Virus record (IMG/VR): IMGVR_UViG_3300043399_000509
DNA from: a virus
Strand: one strand, 5' to 3'
DNA length: 64,000 nucleotides
Under the pieces are notes generated by a model. That model saw only the letters and a list, made by a program, of their open reading frames with translations, was not told where the DNA came from and did not search any database. This document shows, in pieces, positions 44,732 to 58,920 of this stretch (positions are counted from its first letter, which is position 1; each line of letters opens with the position of its first letter). A program made the translations under genes and the position numbers.

Positions 44732-45100
44732 TCACTCGTCGTCTTCTGGGTTATCTGTATTTTTTACCTTGTCTGTGATTTCTTTGACTTCGGCCAGAGA
44801 TACATTTTCATCAATGAATTTATGAAAGTGATGTTCGACACCAACTGAACGATAGACCAGTGCAGATAGAATAGCACACATAAAGTAGAAGTCTTTGGTG
44901 AACTCGTCACTCTCGGTATCCACACCAAAGTTCTCTAACTCAAACAAAATAAGGTCAGACATTTCTGCTGTGATTGTGTCTGCAAAGTTTTGAATACTCT
45001 TTTCCTTCATCTTATTGACAGCATCAATATTCAGGGAAGTATCCCGTACAATCTTACTCTTTGGAAAGGCAACAACATTGGTTTCAGTATTGGATGTCAT
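44732..45100 (-). CDS. Hypothetical protein
   Basis: NVVAFPK motif; operon context. Confidence 0.6.
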   Translation of the reverse strand: MTSNTETNVVAFPKSKIVRDTSLNIDAVNKMKEKSIQNFADTITAEMSDLILFELENFGVDTESDEFTKDFYFMCAILSALVYRSVGVEHHFHKFIDENVSLAEVKEITDKVKNTDNPEDDE

Positions 45101-45101
45101 T

Positions 45102-46247
45102 TTATTTCACCACTTTGATTAGAACTGTGTCTGTATTTATTCGACCAGAGGCTTGCTTTTCCACGGCCTTGATGTCTTCCATGATCTTACGTAGTGCCAG
45201 CTTACCACCAGAGAGCACCTTTGGCAATACATCTTTTGGCTTGCGTAGCGTTTTGGTTATGGAAGTCTTTTCATCAAAGCCAATAATAGTTGTTCCCTTC
45301 ACGATTAAACCTGTAGGGCCAATAGCATTGAACACGCTAAGGCGGCGAGTGCTAACATTGAATACCCAGGCTTGTTGTGATCCAATGATAGTAGCAGGGC
45401 TAATAGAAGTAAGGTTATAGGTATCATCTTTTTCCTTGTACTTCAACTTCTCTACCAAAGCAGTAGCAGGCTTTTCTTTCTTCTTACGAGGCTTACGAGA
45501 TACCTTTGTGACAGTTGAAAATGTCTCTGATGTTGAAATGATACCCTTGACAAACTCCACATACTTTTTTAGGGCAGACTTTTTCCAACCCTTGTATGCT
45601 TCCTTTAGATCATCATCCTTGCCTGTGTAGGCATCATACAACTCAGAGTAAAGTGGACGATAGTATTCTGCAACCTTTTTTGCGATTGCGGGCTTGATAT
45701 TCTTGGCTCGCATCCAAGCAGATGCATCAAAGTCGGGCACTCCTGAAAGAATGAACTTATCAAGCTCCTCCTCCAAGGCAGAGATTACATCTGTTGCCTT
45801 GGATTCAACCCGACTTTGAATAGAGATTACAGGTGCAATCTCAACATCTTCTTCCTGCTTTTGTTCAGGTGCAGCCACACACAAAGCATCAAGAGTAGAC
45901 CACATCTTGGTCTCAATCTGCTCTGGTAGTGTGCCACCACGAGTAAGATTGCGAAAACCCCAACCAGTGGTACGAAGCTTGTTAGCATCGACCTGTGGAA
46001 GTGCTTTCAAATATGCCTTGAACTTTTTGGTTGTGGCTGGGTCTGTACTGCTATCCTTTACTTTGGACTTGAGATATTCGATGACATATCTCTTGGCATC
46101 TTCGGAGTCGTTATTATAGTTATACCAGTTATAAAACCGAATGATGTCAAGATTAGAAGAGTTGGTACTAATCGTTGGTTCAGAGCCAAAATGCTTCTCA
46201 TTGATAAGCGAGTCCTTAGCCCGACTTAGATTTTTTGATCTCTTCAT
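45102..46247 (-). CDS. Conserved hypothetical protein
   Basis: NWYNY, DLKEAY, VFN..TRRL, VKGTTI, KTLRKP, GRIN motifs; start trimmed. Confidence 0.7.
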   Translation of the reverse strand: MKRSKNLSRAKDSLINEKHFGSEPTISTNSSNLDIIRFYNWYNYNNDSEDAKRYVIEYLKSKVKDSSTDPATTKKFKAYLKALPQVDANKLRTTGWGFRNLTRGGTLPEQIETKMWSTLDALCVAAPEQKQEEDVEIAPVISIQSRVESKATDVISALEEELDKFILSGVPDFDASAWMRAKNIKPAIAKKVAEYYRPLYSELYDAYTGKDDDLKEAYKGWKKSALKKYVEFVKGIISTSETFSTVTKVSRKPRKKKEKPATALVEKLKYKEKDDTYNLTSISPATIIGSQQAWVFNVSTRRLSVFNAIGPTGLIVKGTTIIGFDEKTSITKTLRKPKDVLPKVLSGGKLALRKIMEDIKAVEKQASGRINTDTVLIKVVK

Positions 46248-46539
46248 ATTCTTTCTCAAAGTCCGAGAAACTATATTCCTTGAAGTCTGTGATAAGGTTT
46301 GTGCCATATTCTGTCCAGCCTATATCATCTTCCATATTGGATGCAGCATCCCATGCCTCATCCAGCGATTCATACACAACACTTGTAGCATAGACTTCCA
46401 CGATTGTCAATATGTTTGGTGTCCAGGTTTTATCTGCAACATTATATTCTTCAAAGATAGCAGTCACATTTTGCATATGTGCTATGCGAAATTGTGGACC
46501 CTTGGTTTGTAAAACATAAACACCATTATCTGCCGACAT
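46216..46539 (-). CDS. Hypothetical protein
   Basis: MSADNGVYVL...TEYG motif. Confidence 0.6.
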   Translation of the reverse strand: MSADNGVYVLQTKGPQFRIAHMQNVTAIFEEYNVADKTWTPNILTIVEVYATSVVYESLDEAWDAASNMEDDIGWTEYGTNLITDFKEYSFSDFEKEYEEIKKSKSG

Positions 46540-46671
46540 ATTTCTTTTCCTCTTACTGTTTATTATCTGCTGCTTGCATATCTTTCAACCAAGACTTCCA
46601 CACATCTTTTCCCTTTGCCTTACCGAACTTATTTTGAAGGCGAATCTTTTGACGGTTTGAATCCAACTTTG

Positions 46672-46923
46672 TCATTTATCATTATCTCCTACTCTTGATT
46701 TTAGTGCCTTTAGAATAAAATCTTTCTTGTCTACTCCATCAGGTATTTCCAGGCAATCACCCAAAACAACATCAGTTGATGTTGCTACTTGTGTTAGTTC
46801 ATTATATAGTGTTGTGCCCTTTGCTCGGCACTCGTGAAAATTCTGGTATGCACTTGGATCAACATATACTTCACAAGTAAAGTTCAAGGTGCTACATAGA
46901 ATAAAACCTGCTGTAAAACTCAT
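46672..46923 (-). CDS. Hypothetical protein
   Basis: ORF in operon context. Confidence 0.5.
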   Translation of the reverse strand: MSFTAGFILCSTLNFTCEVYVDPSAYQNFHECRAKGTTLYNELTQVATSTDVVLGDCLEIPDGVDKKDFILKALKSRVGDNDK

Positions 46924-46934
46924 ATTTCTAATCC

Positions 46935-47186
46935 CTATGAATAACTGATACTCCTGATTGAGTCCAGCCTAAATGATCGCCAATTATTATTATCTATATC
47001 CCATACAACAAGCACATCCTCATTTTCCTTTTTGGATGATTCTGTGATGTATTCTGGTAGATAATCTTCCAGTAGCGTGCATCGCATCTGTCTTAGGCTA
47101 CCATCAGATTTCTCAAACACAACAGTCATAATATGGCTTTGAAGATTGCTCTTTAGACTTTCTTGTTCTAACATAACTTCAGTCAT
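46935..47186 (-). CDS. WYL-like/Sm-like SH3 beta-barrel protein
   Basis: VVFEKSDGSLRQMRCTL...VWD....WRSFRLD. Confidence 0.75.
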   Translation of the reverse strand: MTEVMLEQESLKSNLQSHIMTVVFEKSDGSLRQMRCTLLEDYLPEYITESSKKENEDVLVVWDIDNNNWRSFRLDSIRSISYS

Positions 47187-47189
47187 TTT

Positions 47190-47450
47190 TTATCGTCCCC
47201 TGTTATTTTCTAGGATAGCCTCAATAACATCTTTGTGTTGGTCTATTATATGGAAAGTGTAATCTTCCATTAGATACGCACAACATAATCCAATAATCAA
47301 AATATTTATGTCAGTGATTACTCCCAAGGCATAAAAAAGTGTGCCAATAACTCCAAGTATATACACGAAGTTTATTGTAAAGAATATTGTTGCCATTAGA
47401 TATATAATGGTTTTGCCATTTTCTTCAATGAACTTTTTCATTTTAGGCAA
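47190..47450 (-). CDS. Small membrane protein
   Basis: Two hydrophobic segments. Confidence 0.55.
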   Translation of the reverse strand: MPKMKKFIEENGKTIIYLMATIFFTINFVYILGVIGTLFYALGVITDINILIIGLCCAYLMEDYTFHIIDQHKDVIEAILENNRGR

Positions 47451-47688
47451 TCTCCAAATATACTCTTAGGTCTTCATATCCACCAATACGAATACCATCA
47501 AATCTAAAAATCTGTGGTACTGTTGGTTTGATATCTGGTCCTAATATAGCACAAAGGTCTTCCTTTGTAAAGTCCTCATTGAATATTTTTTCTACATATT
47601 GAATATGTAGGTTTTCAAGGATTGCCTTGGCTTTATCACACCAAGGGCAATCTGGTTTAGAGTATATTATCATTTTCATACTATTCAT
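47443..47688 (-). CDS. nrdC: Glutaredoxin
   Basis: CPWC, TVPQIF, IGGYED. Confidence 0.9.
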   Translation of the reverse strand: MNSMKMIIYSKPDCPWCDKAKAILENLHIQYVEKIFNEDFTKEDLCAILGPDIKPTVPQIFRFDGIRIGGYEDLRVYLEIA

Positions 47689-48578
47689 TCATTTGATCCC
47701 TAACTTCATCCCTAGCTTTATGGTAGACTTGATCCCTGACTTGATCCTCGACTTGAGACATGACTTGATCCAAGACTCGATCCCAGACTTGAATCCCAAC
47801 ACGATCCCAGGTTTGATTACAGAGTTGATCCCTGATTTGGTCCCATAATTGAAACCTGACTTGATCCCTGATTTGGTCCCATAATTGAAACCTGACTTGA
47901 TCCCAGACTTCACCTTCAACTTGGCTTTCAACTTGAAACCTGACTTGACCATCGGCTTCATTCCAGACTCGATCAAAGACTTGATCAAAAACTTTAGGTG
48001 CAACTTGATCTTTCATACTATTCATTTATTTGGTACCTGACTTGATTTCTGACACAATCATAGATTTGATCGTGGATTCGATTCCTAACTTGAATACTAA
48101 TTTCAGTATTGACTTGTTGATGGACCTGATCCCAGGCTTGATCACTAACTTTATCCCCAACTTGATCCCAGACTTGATTATAGACTTGAGTGTCTATTCG
48201 TTTTTTCATACTATTCATTTAGTTTCATCCCGAACTTGATCTTGGACTGGAACTAAGGCTTGAGGACATATTTGATTTCTCACTTGAACAGTGAGTTCCC
48301 AACCTTGATCCAAGACTCGATCCCAGACTTGAATCCCAACACGATCCCAGGTTTGATTACAGAGTTGATCCCTGACTTTGTGTTTCACACTATTCATTTA
48401 GTTGATCCTTCATTTGAGACCTAACTTGATCTCCAACTTGAACCCATACCTGATCATCAACTGGAGTCCAGATATATGTATCAACCTGAGACATTACACG
48501 AAGATAAACATGATCTCTGATTTGATCCTCAATCTCATTCCAGATGTCAGCATCAATTCGTCTATCCACACTATTCAT
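47681..48578 (-). repeat. QV-repeat mini-gene block A: 48390-48578, 48215-48397, 48018-48218, 47681-48025
   Basis: Four coupled ORFs, each starting MNS, with Q-V-X-Z periodicity. Confidence 0.85.
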
Positions 48579-48582
48579 TTTA

Positions 48583-49398
48583 TCAAACCTCAAAATAAGT
48601 ATCAGGGTTGAAGTGCGTTGCTATGCTTTCATACCCTTCATAACCACGAGCATTAGATACAAGTGTGGTTTCACCAATCTCAAACTTTGACTGAATGTGA
48701 GTATGACCAAACACCCAATACTTTACCTGTGGTCTATCCATAATGAACTCATCAAGGGCACTCGCATAACCAGCATCAAGGTGATTACCACCGTGATAAG
48801 GATTGATTCCTTTGTATGTGGGTGAATGATGTGTTACCACCACACAGTTCTTGTGCTTGTTTGCTTCCAGTTCTGTTGTTAGAAACTCCATTGTCTTTGT
48901 GTGCTTTTCATAGGCGTGCTTTGTAAAAAACCTATCCTTGCCGATTTCAATGTAATGAAAATCATTCATACCAGCACCAACAGCCCGATGTGCCAATGGA
49001 TCGTCTTTATTCATATCAGTCCATAGAGTGCCACCAAGCACAACTGTACTATCATCCAAATGATATGACGAATCATTCAGGTGAATTACACCCGGCAGAT
49101 ACTTCTCAATATACTCTGCTTCAAGGTTGATGTCAAACCCATATGACTCGTGGTTGCCAGTCACATAGAACACTCGCTTGAAGTTTTCACGGACGATATT
49201 GAAAAATGTTAGGGTGCGATCCCGTAGTTTTCTGTTCCGGGCATCAGTCATCCTTGGATTTAGTGCCCTCAACAAAGTGATGTCGCCAGCCAAAATGAGA
49301 TTGTCACCAGAGATTGCCATAAATCTTGGTGAAGCAAAAAATCTTGGTGAAGCAAACTCAATGTGTAGGTCAGACATATAATAGAACTTGTGTGTCAT
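48583..49398 (-). CDS. Calcineurin-like metallophosphoesterase
   Basis: SDLH, AGD, GNHE, THHSP, GHTH motifs; 18-bp tandem duplication at 49321-49356. Confidence 0.9.
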   Translation of the reverse strand: MTHKFYYMSDLHIEFASPRFFASPRFMAISGDNLILAGDITLLRALNPRMTDARNRKLRDRTLTFFNIVRENFKRVFYVTGNHESYGFDINLEAEYIEKYLPGVIHLNDSSYHLDDSTVVLGGTLWTDMNKDDPLAHRAVGAGMNDFHYIEIGKDRFFTKHAYEKHTKTMEFLTTELEANKHKNCVVVTHHSPTYKGINPYHGGNHLDAGYASALDEFIMDRPQVKYWVFGHTHIQSKFEIGETTLVSNARGYEGYESIATHFNPDTYFEV

Positions 49399-50302
49399 TT
49401 TGTTTCATCCCAGACTTGAATATAGACTTGATCATGGACTTGATCGCTGACTTGATCCCAGACTCGACCCATGATTTGATCCCTGACTTGTTCATGGACT
49501 TGATCACTGACTTGATTCCAGACTTGTTCATGGACTTGACGCCGGACTTGATCACTGACTTGTTTTTTCACACTATTCATTTAGTTGATCCCATACTTGA
49601 TTTCTAACTTGAGCCCAAACATGATCCCTGACTTGAACCTCGACTTGATCGCTGATTTGGTCCCAGATTTGATTTCTAATTTGTTCCCAGTCTTGAGACC
49701 AGACTTGATGATAAACACGAGAGGTTCTCAGTTCAGCCCAAGGTTGATCCCAGATATGTTGTTTCAAACTATTCATCTATTTGATCCCAACCTTGATCTC
49801 TAACTTGAAACCAAACCTGTTGATAAACTTGATTACTGGCTTGATTGCTGGTTTGAACCATAACTTGAATACAGACTTGAGATTTGATTTGTTCATAAAC
49901 GTGATCCCAAATCTTAGTTTTAGCTATCTGTCTCACACTATTCATTTCATTTCATCCCAGAGTTGATCATCCAATTGTTCCCAGAATAGAAACCTGACTT
50001 GAGCCCAAACATGATCCCTGACTTGATCAAGGGCTTGATCCCTGACTTGATTCCAGACTTGTTCATGGACTTGATCACTGACTTGAGACCAGACTTGTTT
50101 TTTCACACTATTCATCAATTTGATTCTCGACTTGAGTCCTGACTTGAGTCCTGACTTGAGCACAAACTTGTTTATCAACTTGGGTCCAGACTTGAAACCG
50201 GACTTGATCGTAGACTTGATTACTGACTTGATTATAGACTTGACTATCAACATTAGGCCAGACGTTACTTTTGACTTTGTATTTCACACTATTCATCATC
50301 AT
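49395..50302 (-). repeat. QV-repeat mini-gene block B: 50108-50302, 49942-50115, 49769-49945, 49573-49776, 49395-49580
   Basis: Five coupled MNS ORFs with Q-V-X-Z repeats. Confidence 0.85.
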
Positions 50303-50314
50303 ATCTCCATAATG

Positions 50315-50347
50315 AAGAAGGGGTCCAGTTAGACCAGACCCCCTTTA
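50315..50347 (-). terminator. Hairpin (weak terminator/attenuator) ahead of block B
   Basis: aagggggtctgg-tctaa-ctggacccctt with a short pyrimidine tail. Confidence 0.6.
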
Positions 50348-50351
50348 TGGT

Positions 50352-50690
50352 TTAGTCCTGCACTCGACGGAACCCCTCCGGGGTATACTCACGCTGACGC
50401 CGAACATGATAAGTTCCCTTATCAAACATAATAGGCTCGTGGGTATCGTAACTACGAAGGTGCTCAAGTGCCGTGGGATCATTCACAACGAGGAAGCAAT
50501 CCATAATGGAATCAGGCAGTGAATACATCTTCACCTTCTCTGCTTCCATAACATGGTTGTGACCCGTTTCTGAGTGAGTAACAATCAACTTACCATTTTC
50601 GGGCTTTACTTCCACAACATTTGCAGGAAGTGAGTCAACACGACGAATATACACATCGCCCTGAGCACAAGTATTTTTGAATGTTCGCAT
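50352..50690 (-). CDS. His-rich conserved protein, typical partner of DUF6745 genes
   Basis: QGDV, ETGHNH, EH...THEPI, GTYHVRRQREY...RRVQD. Confidence 0.75.
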   Translation of the reverse strand: MRTFKNTCAQGDVYIRRVDSLPANVVEVKPENGKLIVTHSETGHNHVMEAEKVKMYSLPDSIMDCFLVVNDPTALEHLRSYDTHEPIMFDKGTYHVRRQREYTPEGFRRVQD

Positions 50691-50723
50691 TGTATAGTCT
50701 CCTTTGGTTTTCCATTATGTCTT

Positions 50724-50752
50724 ATAGTAGCATACTATTTAGTGGAAGTCAA
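50724..50752 (-). promoter_or_regulatory. Early sigma70-type promoter
   Basis: TTGACT-17-TACTAT, extended TG. Confidence 0.75.
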
Positions 50753-50904
50753 GTATAAAGTTTCATATAGTTCATTCAAACTTTGAACCCTAACATTATA
50801 AACAAGTTGTGCTGTATCTTCTAACATCCAATGATCAAATTTTGCTTCAATATCAACATGTTCATCAAATTCTGAATGAAATTTTGGAGTAAGATATACC
50901 TTAT

Positions 50905-52379
50905 TCAATCTTCCAGCCATCGTATATCTTCCTGTAGTTGAAATTCTACTGCGGAACGAACTTGTTCGCCCACCATTATATAGACAGGGCGTGGCACACC
51001 ACCACCTACTTGATCGGCAACTTCCTCACATACTACTTCTCCAAAAAAACCGTACAAAGTTGTATAAACCTTTTTTCTCACACTATTCATTGATTTGATC
51101 CCAAACTTCATCCCAGATTTGATCACCAACTTGATCATAGACTTGATCCCAGACATGAATAGTGACTCTATTCCCGATTTGATCCCAGACATGAAACCTG
51201 ACCTGATCCCTAACTTGAACCATGACTTGATCCCTAATTTGAACCTCGACCTGATACCTGACTTGATCATAGACTTGATCGAACACACTATTCATTGATT
51301 TGATTCCTGACTTGATGCCAGACTCGATGTACGATATGACCCCGGACATGATCACTGACCTGATTATCAACTTGAATACTGACTTGTTTCCAGAGTTGGT
51401 CTGTAACTTGAATCCAGTTTTCAGTTTGGATTTGTTCTCTCACACTATTCATGTAACTGATTCCAGATGTGATTTCTGACTTGATTATTGACTTGATCTC
51501 GGACTTGACCCTTGACTTGAGTCCTGACTTGATCATAAATTTGAATACAGGCTTGATGTCTGGTTTGATTCCAAACTTGAATATAAGGTTGCTCCCAAAC
51601 TTGACCTTTCACACTATTCATCAATTTGATTCCAAACTTTATCCCAAGCTTGATCCTCGACTTGATCATAAACTTGATCTTGGACTTGATATATAACTTG
51701 AATCTTAACTTGACTCCTAACTTGATTCTCGACTTTATCCCAGACTTGTTTACCAACTTGATTCTTGATTTGCATCTCAACTTGATCGTTGACTTGGCCG
51801 ACTGGAGTATATATTTGATTCCAAATTTGTTTTTTCACACTATTCATTTGATCTGATTCCATACTTCATCCCAAACTTGATTCCAGACTTGATTCTTGAC
51901 TTGATAACTGTTTTTATTTTCCCAACGCTGCATGATAACGGCTTGATCCCAAGCTTCATTACTTGTTTGATTTTTGACTTGATCCCTGACCTGAATATAG
52001 AGTTGAGACCCAATTTGTTTTGCCATACTATTCATCGATTTGTTCTTTGATTTGAACCATTGTTTTATGTCTAATTTGTTCCCAGAATGGATCACCAACT
52101 TTAATCCAGACTTGAGCCCTGACTTGAACCAAGATTTGATTCTCGACTTGATCCCAAACTTGATCGATGACTTGATACCTGACTTGATTTTTCACACTAT
52201 TCATCGATTTGATCCAAAATTTGAGCCGTAGTTTGATATCTGGCTTGTTCACAAAATTGATCACCGAATTGAGACCAGACTTGAGACCTGATTTGAATAC
52301 ATATTTCATGTCCGGTTTGATTGCAAACTTGAACAAAGATTTGATTCCAGATTTGTTTTCTCACACTATTCATAATCAT
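50905..52379 (-). repeat. QV-repeat mini-gene block C: 52197-52379, 52028-52204, 51844-52035, 51614-51847, 51445-51621, 51288-51452, 51083-51295, 50905-51090
   Basis: Eight consecutive coupled MNS ORFs; the last is degenerate. Confidence 0.85.
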
Positions 52380-52387
52380 ATCTCCAT

Positions 52388-52418
52388 AAAAGTAGAGGGG
52401 GTTTATGCCCCCTCTACC
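52388..52418 (-). terminator. Hairpin terminator ahead of block C
   Basis: gtagagggggc-ataa-accccctctac-tttt. Confidence 0.7.
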
Positions 52419-52431
52419 GGCACTCCCAAGA

Positions 52432-53304
52432 TTAGGTTCGGATTTCAGGTTTCAGGAAACTATCCTTATCAAACCCAAAAGTCCAAGCATTGGCATCCAG
52501 AGCAGTCTTCATATCAGGCGGAACAGGCAACGCAAACTCTCGACCCGTACCACACATAACACGCAGGAACTTCTCCTTACCAATCTCAGGAATTTCTACC
52601 TCAAGCAGTGTACCAATTTCAGGGTCTTCATCTTCATCAAGAACCTGAGCATCAAGGGCCTTGAGAATCTTGTTCCAACCAAGGATTTCACAGGCACAAC
52701 GACGCTGTTCAATGTTTTCCCAAGTTAGAGCAATCTCAGGATTCAACTTTTCCTTGTTCTCAATCCACTCGGCAGGAATGCGAGTACCGTGCCAAGCATA
52801 GACGCAGAAGCCATCACGGTAACGAATCGCTGGACCATCTTCACAGTGAAGTCGGTTCTGATCATCAAACTTGATGCGTTCTGGCCGATCCTGAAACACA
52901 ACCAGATCATCATAGACATTGAGCCAACCACAATGTTTGGCCAGTTCAATGAGACCATTCAACTTATTGCAGCATTCCAGACCGACCACATCACGGAAGT
53001 AGGCATAGAAGGCCAGCCAATAGGCATCGTGAGCACCATAAATCATTTCATTATAGATTTCACGCTTGGTTCGCTTTGGATCAATCTCCTGAATGATACG
53101 AATAGCATCCATAGGACCCTTGGCCGTGAGGAACTTTGTGGGTAGAGGCAAACCAACAAGTTCATATGCCATACACACAGCATCCTTGGCCTTTTCAAAA
53201 TCAACAGGTTCGGTGGATAGACCGATATCAATCCAAGTATCACGGTATTCACCAAACTTGGCCTTCTGTTCTTCAGTGAGTGCTTCAATCTTCTTAGTCG
53301 TCAT
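52432..53304 (-). CDS. DUF6745-like protein
   Basis: GAHDAYWLAFY, CGW, RLHCEDGPAIRYRDG..VYAWHG, NIEQRR, CGTGREFALPVPP. Confidence 0.8.
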   Translation of the reverse strand: MTTKKIEALTEEQKAKFGEYRDTWIDIGLSTEPVDFEKAKDAVCMAYELVGLPLPTKFLTAKGPMDAIRIIQEIDPKRTKREIYNEMIYGAHDAYWLAFYAYFRDVVGLECCNKLNGLIELAKHCGWLNVYDDLVVFQDRPERIKFDDQNRLHCEDGPAIRYRDGFCVYAWHGTRIPAEWIENKEKLNPEIALTWENIEQRRCACEILGWNKILKALDAQVLDEDEDPEIGTLLEVEIPEIGKEKFLRVMCGTGREFALPVPPDMKTALDANAWTFGFDKDSFLKPEIRT

Positions 53305-53339
53305 TGTATAAGTCCTCATTGGTTTCGCATTATGTTTCT

Positions 53340-53368
53340 ACTATAGCATAGGTAAAAAGGAAAGTCAA
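53340..53368 (-). promoter_or_regulatory. Early sigma70-type promoter
   Basis: TTGACT-17-TATAGT, extended TG. Confidence 0.8.
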
Positions 53369-53377
53369 GCGTGATTT

Positions 53378-53903
53378 TTAGTCATAGATTTCATCTACAA
53401 GTCTATCTACAATTTTGTCGTGAACTTCAAAAATTTTATTTTCCAGTGGGCGTTCAATATCTCTCCACACAATATTATTAATCTTTATATCCACTTGAGA
53501 TTCAATTTTAGATGCAACTTCAGCATGACCTTTATGATATATTTGTCTATCAACAGATTTCATTTGGTTTCATCCCAGATTTGATCTTGGGTCAATCCGT
53601 TAACTTGAATAGCCATTTGACCCCAGACTTGATTCTGGCATTCAGCCTGAACTTGAAATGTGGTTTGATATTCAGTTTGATCGGTGACTTGAACCATAGG
53701 TTCACTTCTGATTTGTTTTCTCACACTATTCATTTAGTTTCATCCCAGACTTGATTACTGACTTGAGTAATGGCTTGAGCCAAGTTTTGATCCCTGATTT
53801 GGTCCCATAATTGATCCCAGACTTGATCGCTGACTTTATCCCAAACTTGGTCACTGACTTGAATATAAACTTTATTCCAGATGTGTTTTCTCACACTATT
53901 CAT
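53378..53903 (-). repeat. QV-repeat mini-gene block D: 53730-53903, 53560-53733, 53378-53563 (degenerate)
   Basis: Coupled MNSV/MKSV ORFs, DETK* junctions. Confidence 0.8.
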
Positions 53904-54111
53904 TTTTGTATCCAACAACATCACAAATATCCTCAATAAGATCATAGGCATTTTCAATAACCCGATCACATTGGCCTATTGTTTCAGGGCAAGATATACG
54001 CTGATTCTCAATAAACTTTTCACAAACAACCCAAAGTTTTTTGAGCCGTTCTATATCAATCTCCTGATGTGCCATTCCATCCTCCGTCCTTATATACTTT
54101 ATTTCGCTCAC
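53896..54111 (-). CDS. Hypothetical protein
   Basis: ISCPETI.Q.DRVIENAY...VVGY motif. Confidence 0.6.
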   Translation of the reverse strand: MSEIKYIRTEDGMAHQEIDIERLKKLWVVCEKFIENQRISCPETIGQCDRVIENAYDLIEDICDVVGYKNE

Positions 54112-54253
54112 AGGAAATCTTCATTAGTTCGTCTGCCAGAGCATCCAAGGCATTACGAACACAAAGTTCCATCTCTGTTATTTTTTCTGGCTTCAAATCC
54201 ATCCTACCGACGACACGACGAATGGCAAGTTCAACTACTTCAAAATCATTCAT
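54056..54253 (-). CDS. Hypothetical protein
   Basis: Coupled to the preceding QV gene by ATGA overlap. Confidence 0.5.
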   Translation of the reverse strand: MNDFEVVELAIRRVVGRMDLKPEKITEMELCVRNALDALADELMKISCERNKVYKDGGWNGTSGD

Positions 54254-54435
54254 TTGGTTTCATCCAAAAGTTGGTTACTGACTTGATTTCTGATTTGAAC
54301 CCAGACTTGATCACAGACTTGAACCCAGACTTGATCCATAACTTGTTCATAGATTTGATTACTGGCTTGATTATAGACTTGATCACAGACTTGATCCCGG
54401 ACTTGATCACAGACTTGTTTGCTCAAACTATTCAT
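54250..54435 (-). CDS. QV-repeat mini-protein
   Basis: MNSLSKQVCDQVRDQVCDQVYNQ...DETK. Confidence 0.8.
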   Translation of the reverse strand: MNSLSKQVCDQVRDQVCDQVYNQASNQIYEQVMDQVWVQVCDQVWVQIRNQVSNQLLDETK

Positions 54436-55965: not shown

Positions 55966-56559
55966 ATGTCTATTTATACCCCATCATTAGAATATTATGT
56001 TTATGCTTATCTAGGAATAGATGGCAAGCCTTATTATATTGGCAAAGGTAAAGGTTATAGGGCTTGGAGCAAACATAAGAAAATTATAGTTCCCGAGGAC
56101 AGGAAAAGGATTGTCATTTGCGAATCTAATCTAACGGAAGTTGGTGCGTTTGCTTTGGAAAGAAGGCTTATTCGTTGGTATGGTAGAAAAAATAATGGCA
56201 CAGGAATATTGAGAAATATGACTGATGGTGGAGAGGGTTTATCTGGTTTAGTATTTACTGAAGAATTAAGAATAAAAATTAGTGAAAGAACATCTGGTGA
56301 AAACCATCATCTCTTTGGTAAGAAGCATAGCGAAGAAACAAAAGAGAAAATAAGACAATCCAGACTAGGTAAAAAACATAGCGAAGAATCTAAACAAAAA
56401 ATGAGTGAAGAAAGAAAAGGTATAAATAACCCCTTCTTTGGTAAGAAACATAGTGATGAAGTTAAACAAATAGTAAGTCTAACAAATAAGAACAAAGTTA
56501 GAACAGAAGAAACAAAAAGAAAAATCAGTATGACAAAAAAGGCTATGCGGCAATTTTAG
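55966..56559 (+). CDS. GIY-YIG-type homing endonuclease with NUMOD3 repeats
   Basis: YVYAY...PYYIGKG, E..LI..YGR, RN.TDGGEG, repeated GKKHSEE. Confidence 0.85.
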   Translation: MSIYTPSLEYYVYAYLGIDGKPYYIGKGKGYRAWSKHKKIIVPEDRKRIVICESNLTEVGAFALERRLIRWYGRKNNGTGILRNMTDGGEGLSGLVFTEELRIKISERTSGENHHLFGKKHSEETKEKIRQSRLGKKHSEESKQKMSEERKGINNPFFGKKHSDEVKQIVSLTNKNKVRTEETKRKISMTKKAMRQF

Positions 56560-57968: not shown

Positions 57969-58172
57969 TCACCCGAAAGCATTGTAGTAGGAACTCTCAT
58001 CTTCATATTGTGAATACTTGTGATCTATCACAAGTCGTCCAGTGATTTCTTCAATCTCGGTTTGAAAATCCACAACAGTCATACGAGAACAATCACAGAT
58101 AGGCAAAGCACCATATGCAAGACGATATGTTTCAAGGTAAAGAGCCATCCAAAGATCACGCTTGCTGTTCAT
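57969..58172 (-). CDS. Hypothetical protein with MNS start
   Basis: Coupled to the upstream QV gene by ATGA overlap. Confidence 0.5.
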   Translation of the reverse strand: MNSKRDLWMALYLETYRLAYGALPICDCSRMTVVDFQTEIEEITGRLVIDHKYSQYEDESSYYNAFG

Positions 58173-58529
58173 TTGATTTCCTCCCATACTTGAGCATAGA
58201 TTTGTCTCCAAACCTCATCATAAACCTCATCCACGATTTGAGACCTGACTTGATTATTGACTTGATTGTTGACTTGAGACCAGCCTTGAGCCCAGACTTG
58301 ATCCCTGACTTGTTCCATAACTTGGTCCCAGACTTGATTGCTCACACTATTCATTTTCAATATCCAGGTTATCATAGATTTGATCAAGTATCACACCGTG
58401 GAGATTATCATAGTCAATGGGTGATTCAAAGCACAAAGAAGTCCATAGATTAGCACTAACATATTTTATCAAATGATCAAATGTATCTTGTGTGGCTTTA
58501 TTAGAGACTTTACGATTCAGGCTTTTCAT
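58169..58529 (-). repeat. QV-repeat mini-gene block E: 58347-58529 (degenerate), 58169-58354
   Basis: MNSVSNQVWDQVMEQVRDQV; NE*/MNS junction. Confidence 0.75.
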
Positions 58530-58590: not shown

Positions 58591-58860
58591 TTAGGCTACC
58601 ATAGCAAGATCATAGTAGCTAATGGACTTCACGCTGTCAAGCCGGAACGAACGCCACTCGCTCTTGTCAAGGTCATAGGCTGCCACAACCTCTTCGTCGA
58701 TTTCACGAGTCTTCTTTGCGGAAGACTTCTTTGTCTTGGGCAGCATATCCTTGGCAAGTGTACAACGCATCGTTCGTTCTGTACCATCTGCCTTCTCAAA
58801 GGTTACCATAGCAATGGCAGACTTCAGGCCAGCAACAACTTCATCACGAATGAGTTCCAT
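58591..58860 (-). CDS. WYL-like/Sm-like SH3 beta-barrel protein (paralogue of 46935-47186)
   Basis: VTFEKADGTERTMRCTL...YDL....WRSFRLD. Confidence 0.75.
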   Translation of the reverse strand: MELIRDEVVAGLKSAIAMVTFEKADGTERTMRCTLAKDMLPKTKKSSAKKTREIDEEVVAAYDLDKSEWRSFRLDSVKSISYYDLAMVA

Positions 58861-58891
58861 AGAGGTCTCCTTTATTACTCATTATGGTAGT

Positions 58892-58920
58892 ATAATAGCA
58901 TAGGTAAAAAGCAAAGTCAA
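58892..58920 (-). promoter_or_regulatory. Early sigma70-type promoter
   Basis: TTGACT-17-TATTAT, extended TG; spacer nearly identical to 53340-53368. Confidence 0.8.

Follow-up and report, generated by a model that had tools for sequence, protein, structure and literature searches.

The window analyzed here, the whole stretch of 64,000 nucleotides of viral DNA, appears to hold a split and amplified form of a phage module made of a DUF6745 protein (the core) and a His-rich partner. In the fused form of this module, a period-4 helical tract in the N-terminal domain would fold back onto its own protein; here the tract would be made as 23 separate proteins of about 60 residues, encoded by genes that we call QV mini-genes. 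From the anatomy of the locus and the comparative pattern among relatives, both observed directly, together with a structure model, we think it probable that the mini-proteins complement the core in trans, gripping it with a conserved Q-V face, leaving a variable face exposed, and forming many variants of the core, with the partner as effector.

Layout of the locus

The window comes from a 156-kb virus record with T4-like genes, whose gp32 has <60% identity to that of any cultured phage. The core, partner, and mini-genes are located among short minus-strand accessory genes. A profile search of the whole 156-kb genome found one DUF6745 core, one partner, and 23 QV mini-genes; because the QV profile was built from these same mini-genes, the tally of 23 is not an independent test of them. 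Twenty-one of the 23 lie within 47681-54435, and all 23 frames are intact, with products of 54-114 aa. Eight mini-genes follow the core, five follow the partner, four lie upstream of the core, and six are elsewhere. Within a block, adjacent mini-genes share 4 or 8 nt, a pattern of overlap typical of translational coupling.

The partner lies 1.7 kb downstream of the core. Core and partner alike have a look-alike promoter-type site on the 5' side and, on the 3' side, a hairpin followed by an identical ribosome-binding sequence, which opens the mini-gene block (8 and 5 genes, respectively). Thus, the view in the preliminary description that core and partner each head a block was upheld, though 10 other mini-genes are not so headed. 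The promoter scan as a whole gave no excess of sites (22, vs. 24.3 in shuffled sequences), so the two promoter-type sites rest on their mutual likeness and their position. The features are as follows:

52432-53304 (−): DUF6745 core, repeat-less, 290 aa; residues 5-175 are the predicted mini-protein binding surface
50352-50690 (−): His-rich all-beta partner, 112 aa, phrog_27831; near-invariant H39, E41, H44, H46, H77, H84, and D112
53340-53368 (−): sigma70-like promoter-type site 5' of the core, called by consensus match alone; 10/12 with extended TG
50724-50752 (−): look-alike promoter-type site 5' of the partner, called by consensus match alone; 9/12 with extended TG
52391-52418 (−): 11-bp hairpin at the junction of core and first mini-gene block; z −2.9
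50318-50344 (−): 12-bp hairpin at the junction of partner and second mini-gene block; z −3.2
52197-52373 (−): QV mini-gene, 58 aa, used for the complex model
52028-52204 (−): QV mini-gene, 58 aa
51844-52035 (−): QV mini-gene, 63 aa
51614-51847 (−): QV mini-gene, 77 aa
51445-51621 (−): QV mini-gene, 58 aa
51288-51452 (−): QV mini-gene, 54 aa
51083-51295 (−): QV mini-gene, 70 aa
50905-51090 (−): diverged QV mini-gene, 61 aa
50108-50296 (−): QV mini-gene, 62 aa, first behind the partner
49942-50115 (−): QV mini-gene, 57 aa
49769-49945 (−): QV mini-gene, 58 aa
49573-49776 (−): QV mini-gene, 67 aa
49395-49580 (−): QV mini-gene, 61 aa
48390-48578 (−): QV mini-gene, 62 aa
48215-48397 (−): QV mini-gene, 60 aa
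48018-48218 (−): QV mini-gene, 66 aa
47681-48025 (−): long QV gene, 114 aa; 72 identical nt in common with 48215-48397
53378-53563 (−): diverged mini-gene, 61 aa, upstream of the core
53560-53733 (−): QV mini-gene, 57 aa, upstream of the core
53730-53903 (−): QV mini-gene, 57 aa, upstream of the core
54250-54435 (−): QV mini-gene, 61 aa, upstream of the core
58169-58354 (−): outlying QV mini-gene, 61 aa
38433-38624 (−): outlying QV mini-gene, 63 aa

The core protein and its missing tract

Residues 85-283 of the core matched PF20530 (DUF6745) with an E value of 1.4e-35 and 122.9 bits (curated cut-off, 27), in agreement with the preliminary recognition of a DUF6745-like gene at 52432-53304. The protein was also assigned to phrog_31813. 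Between its KGP and YGAH motifs is a non-repetitive spacer of 24 residues, close to the 20 or so non-repetitive residues after KGP that had been estimated. In about 40 fused homologues, 60-250 residues of period-4 units, of the type Q-V, Q-L, S-V, or A-V, lie exactly between the same two anchors; homologues with a QV tract at this place, as stated in the preliminary description, therefore do exist, and the alternative that homologues would have no internal repeats was not borne out. Measured against an internal period-4 tract of 50-250 residues, the core in the window falls outside the fused form, having the 24-residue spacer instead. An array of tetrapeptides with two fixed and two variable positions is present both in the fused relatives and in the free genes. 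Repeat-less cores are a large group: the best 120 matches to this core are all 286-306 aa long, with 61-76% identity. In a third state, a long non-repetitive or degenerate insert replaces the tract (L240:4599-5735; L062:2791-3744; L255; L260; Ma-LMM01 gp174).

The core was predicted to fold confidently alone (pLDDT 90), so that a mini-protein is not obviously needed by it. A fold search against solved structures gave a best Z of 4.4 (rmsd 2.9, 54 residues aligned) and no Foldseek match at E 0.001; the lack of fold matches for the core, and likewise for the partner (below), does not make either fold new. Searches of BFVD and the Atlas returned uncharacterized relatives only, NCBIfam yielded no family, and the PADLOC profiles gave no family at E 0.1 for core, partner, or mini-protein. 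No relevant paper was found in the literature searched for DUF6745, the repeat motif, or Ma-LMM01 gp174.

Free repeat genes and core type among relatives

The preliminary description had proposed that loss of the internal repeat be compared with the presence of adjacent free QV genes. For this comparison the relatives were de-duplicated by clustering at 80% identity, and a free repeat gene was scored when it lay within 3 kb of the core. In the first set, a free repeat gene was present beside 28 of 35 short cores vs. 0 of 40 long cores. After enlargement with loci from genomes and metagenomes, such a gene was present beside 42 of the 51 short cores, beside none of the 50 repeat-bearing ones, and beside 2 of 13 cores with intermediate or other-dialect inserts. 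The repeats near short cores have a strong strand bias.

Two further searches reached beyond the 3-kb limit; the whole-record, locus, and repeat-first sets partly overlap. When the whole record was searched for 10 repeat-bearing records (7 judged complete), QV matches were found inside the core only, and 3 of 5 short-core records without nearby mini-genes carried free genes farther off. A DNA pattern search that started from the repeat found 58 stretches, of which 26 belonged to or adjoined fused cores, 31 fell within free genes, and 1 was unassigned. For 22 of the 31 free-gene stretches a core was present in the same record, repeat-less wherever it could be read, and the remaining 9 were on fragments; QV arrays independent of DUF6745, which would have spoken against the original proposal, were thus not found. 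One record (G008) with QV genes and no core was rejected as a counter-example because its QV genes lie at the contig end. Apparent free genes at five repeat-bearing loci (L123, L128, L190, L191, and L210) turned out to be chance matches or the internal tract read in another frame. No mini-gene match was found for one short core across its whole incomplete MAG (L270), nor for four others on the fragments or flanks searched (L026, L064, L376, and L397).

Several individual loci deserve mention. A complete 63-kb phage (L228/L232/L235; G012, ~45100-51300), one of the three short-core records with free genes farther off, has 9 matches; its mini-genes occupy both strands at a distance of 8-14 kb from the core. 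At L082:1157-4046, two short cores, one with a spacer of just 8 residues, occur at one locus with Q-V and R-V mini-genes between them. The largest array among the loci examined, with ~26 free mini-genes behind one short core plus partner, is at L091:6362-10807. On another large phage contig, amoC (PF04896; L008:10284-11045) is ~2.4 kb from a split module.

Recurrence of the split layout among lineages

Most short cores, including that of the window, form one supported clade, so Fisher or contingency p values overstate the support for the association. In a careful tree, which was built with the tract left out and is unrooted, there are 7 changes of the long state, and at least four lineages show the split layout (the main clade, L080/L081, L002, and L089); a quicker and less reliable tree adds L249, L316, and L332, for a total of about seven. 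The L080/L081 lineage has Q-L mini-genes and is placed among Q-L fused cores, as expected if free genes derive from the local tract. In a test of independent pairs, about 4 pairs agreed and 0 disagreed (p 0.125); this under-powered result is consistent with the association and not significant. Judged from nesting on the unrooted tree, the direction of change was likely from fused to split.

Model of the core–mini-protein complex

Modeling of the core, the partner, and a QV peptide together had been suggested in the preliminary description. In a three-chain model with the product of 52197-52373 as the scored chain, docking of the mini-protein to the core scored 0.76, vs. 0.01 for the best control. 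This score is for 1 of the 23 mini-proteins, with unrelated proteins rather than scrambled repeats as controls and with own alignments. In the calibration, the 0.76 mark was reached by 58 of 80 solved pairs vs. 2 of 110 mismatched pairs. Model runs agreed in at least 66% of contacts, the pLDDT of the mini-protein was at least 74, and the score was lost when the core was swapped for another protein. The model supports core–mini-protein binding, and it may recall contacts of the fused form.

All confident contacts fell on core residues 5-175, around the place where the tract is missing. The C-terminal domain was free in the model, and the contacts listed included no confident one joining partner and mini-protein. 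The best-resolved contacts were those of mini-protein residues 2-5 with core residues 129-132. Starts of the M-K/N-S-V type predominate among 370 free genes from many lineages, and the modeled contacts of residues 2-5 would explain this dominance. Core contacts per unit position were 13/13 for Q, 13/13 for V, 9/13 for the third position, and 4/14 for the fourth; in the model the conserved Q-V face points inward and the variable face mostly outward. Docking would involve a short N-terminal M-N/K-S-V strand and the Q and V of every unit, wrapped around the core, with the variable third and fourth positions left more exposed. One core gene could in this way give many core–mini-protein variants at once, where fused relatives have one tract per genome.

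The earlier proposal that this phage has externalized the repeat and supplies it in trans is partly supported: the tracts of the homologues, the contrast between 42/51 and 0/50, and the predicted docking speak for it, and supply in trans stays an interpretation of them.

The partner protein

The gene at 50352-50690 encodes the partner with the QGDV, GHNH, and RQREY motifs, as previously described. The statement that DUF6745 proteins are encoded beside such a partner also proved right: it is present at 158 of 165 related loci, of fused or split form. The partner family comprises ~8,000 clusters at 50% identity. Among 150 representatives picked by the same profile, H39, E41, H44, H46, H77, H84, and the terminal D112 are conserved at 98-100%.

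The partner was predicted to be all-beta (pLDDT 91). A search against solved structures gave a best Z of 4.2 (rmsd 2.8, 54 residues aligned) and no Foldseek match at E 0.001, and its profile against the sequences of solved structures gave a best E of 0.025. A cupin or double-stranded beta-helix fold was considered; what was found is a confident all-beta model whose best structural match has the above Z over those 54 residues. One Atlas cluster of 50 DUF6745 proteins includes the partner fold (TM 0.76), a hint of a natural core-partner fusion. Three partial core-partner joins may be assembly artifacts; a truncated join at L023 was left out as evidence. Longer partner proteins were mostly read-through from upstream HNH frames. 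At many alphaproteobacterial-type loci (P0123-P0145), the reading frame of an HNH endonuclease is continuous with that of the partner gene, which suggests that an endonuclease was inserted there between the core and partner genes.

We infer a metal site and an enzymatic role for the partner, which would probably serve as the effector subunit, dependent on metal, and may contact the C-terminal domain that is left free in the core.

Variation, turnover, and alternative explanations

The 204 repeat units of the mini-genes comprise 106 different ones, and median pairwise identity is 42%, yet 94% of Q codons are CAA. In the nearest relative (L013; core 76% identical), the block is partly inverted and the mini-gene set is its own, with different ends. 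By such comparisons, the mini-gene set is turning over fast. We consider that the most likely purpose of the module would be early, host-directed recognition, e.g., counter-defense, given its position among accessory genes, the host-type promoter sites, the fast turnover, and a design like that of gp54 (below); this purpose is the least secure part of the explanation, and counter-defense taken alone is offered tentatively, by analogy. A more specific reading also assumes that the mini-proteins differ in function. The cut-out hypervariable repeat would be maintained as dozens of co-expressed subunits, a library whose interchangeable members would each retarget one core-plus-metalloenzyme complex. 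With such a library a lytic phage could counter many defenses or host variants at once, and the arrangement would have arisen repeatedly from a fused, length-tunable ancestor. We regard this reading as possible, though rather doubtful.

The mini-proteins might bind the core and yet be redundant, whether as a stabilizing or inhibiting subunit, as an antidote to harmful core-partner activity, or as a dosage device, with copy number drifting by 12-bp slippage and unequal recombination and diversity tolerated, not selected. Such redundancy fits the binding model equally well. It would also fit the homogenization of gene ends within a genome (by gene termini, the closest match was in the same genome in 39 of 40 cases; chance, ~17) and the 72-nt exact copy shared by mini-genes 47681-48025 and 48215-48397. 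Identical cores at L008 and L009 are accompanied by 6 and 1 mini-gene copies, respectively, a difference that is either real or an assembly collapse; it fits redundancy as well as it fits a library. The diversity of the units in the face of uniform Q codons, the outward direction of the variable positions in the model, and the retention of up to 26 intact copies all argue against redundancy, and we judge it unlikely.

Less likely still is independent action, in which mini-genes derived from the tract would encode free amphipathic helices that serve as decoys or inhibitors of host proteins, the linkage to the core being a record of origin. Mini-genes as far as 8-14 kb away and on both strands, short cores without detected mini-genes, and a core that folds alone are what this explanation would lead one to expect. 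Against it, free genes were never found with repeat-bearing cores, complete records with free genes contain a core, and the conserved start motif is accounted for by the modeled core contacts. Non-functional repeat DNA produced by slippage, open because the 12-bp unit is stop-free in one frame, is very improbable: the unit is a low-complexity 12-mer whose other frames are often open too, but all 23 frames are intact with start-stop overlaps of 4 or 8 nt, a dedicated ribosome-binding sequence stands behind each hairpin, free mini-proteins from distant lineages agree in size (median 65 aa) and in start motif, and the repeats near short cores keep their strand bias.

Comparison with known systems

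Complementation of the core in trans, the explanation we prefer, can be compared with several systems. Mycobacterium prophage prophiGD102-1 (gp38/gp37) and Microcystis phage Ma-LMM01 (gp174/gp175) have the same core domains and partner as here. The prophage gp38 keeps a Q-L-x-x tract inside the protein, at the site where it is missing here. Free QV genes are absent from Ma-LMM01, whose gp174 carries a long insert that is not repetitive, whereas the present locus has the 24-residue spacer and 23 free genes.

One catalytic or scaffold core is combined with many alternative recognition subunits in type I restriction-modification systems, with their HsdS alleles, and in eukaryotic F-box proteins on Skp1. 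The subunit here differs in being a bare repeat helix from the core's own ancestor; its recognition role is putative, and no kinship with those systems is expected.

In overall design the fused DUF6745 form resembles gp54 of mycobacteriophage Tweety, the best analogy, although the proteins are unrelated. According to a published account, unique N- and C-terminal regions of gp54 flank an array of 40-48 tetrapeptides, each with two of its positions fixed and two variable, and altered repeat number tunes activity against the Phrann gp29/gp30 defense (PMC9262239). For the unique N- and C-terminal regions, comparison with gp54 gave no homology (hhalign probability 0.2%, E 0.39), an HMM search of the Tweety region gave no match, and no His-rich partner was found near gene 54. 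The gp54 unit is A-A-x-x in a single cis tract tuned by mutation, in contrast to the separate subunits and different unit here. We take the locus as a split form of a catalogued but uncharacterized family, perhaps working like gp54 without belonging to the gp54 type.

For neither the core family nor the partner family has a function been described or a fold solved. The split form opens the family to experiment: its variable part is encoded as a small protein of its own, variants can be exchanged singly, and binding, targets, and phenotype could be read variant by variant. If the mini-proteins differ in target, diversification would proceed here in a way that differs from diversity-generating retroelements, from invertible segments, and from the tuning of repeat length.

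Neighboring genes

The array is closed by a glutaredoxin-like gene with a CPWC motif (47443-47688, −), which has an M-N-S-M-K start as in the mini-genes and overlaps the last mini-gene by 8 nt. A metallophosphoesterase gene (PF00149; 48583-49398, −) is coupled within the array, and L013 likewise has one beside its mini-genes. The last gene of the first block (50735-50920, −) encodes 61 aa with no family match, and its 3' end contains the partner's promoter-type site. Coupled to mini-gene 54250-54435 is a stand-alone Nlig-Ia, the NAD+-binding ligase N-terminal domain (PF22745; 54428-54703, −). By inspection, 55966-56559 (+), on the strand opposite to its neighbors, encodes a GIY-YIG-like endonuclease with NUMOD3-like repeats. 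A promoter-type site nearly identical to that of the core (58870-58920, −) lies upstream of 58591-58860 and the outlying mini-gene at 58169. Overlapping this mini-gene is a 60-aa frame (58347-58529, −) with an M-K-S-L start and a mini-gene-like end; it has no QV profile match and is possibly a degenerate member of the mini-gene family.
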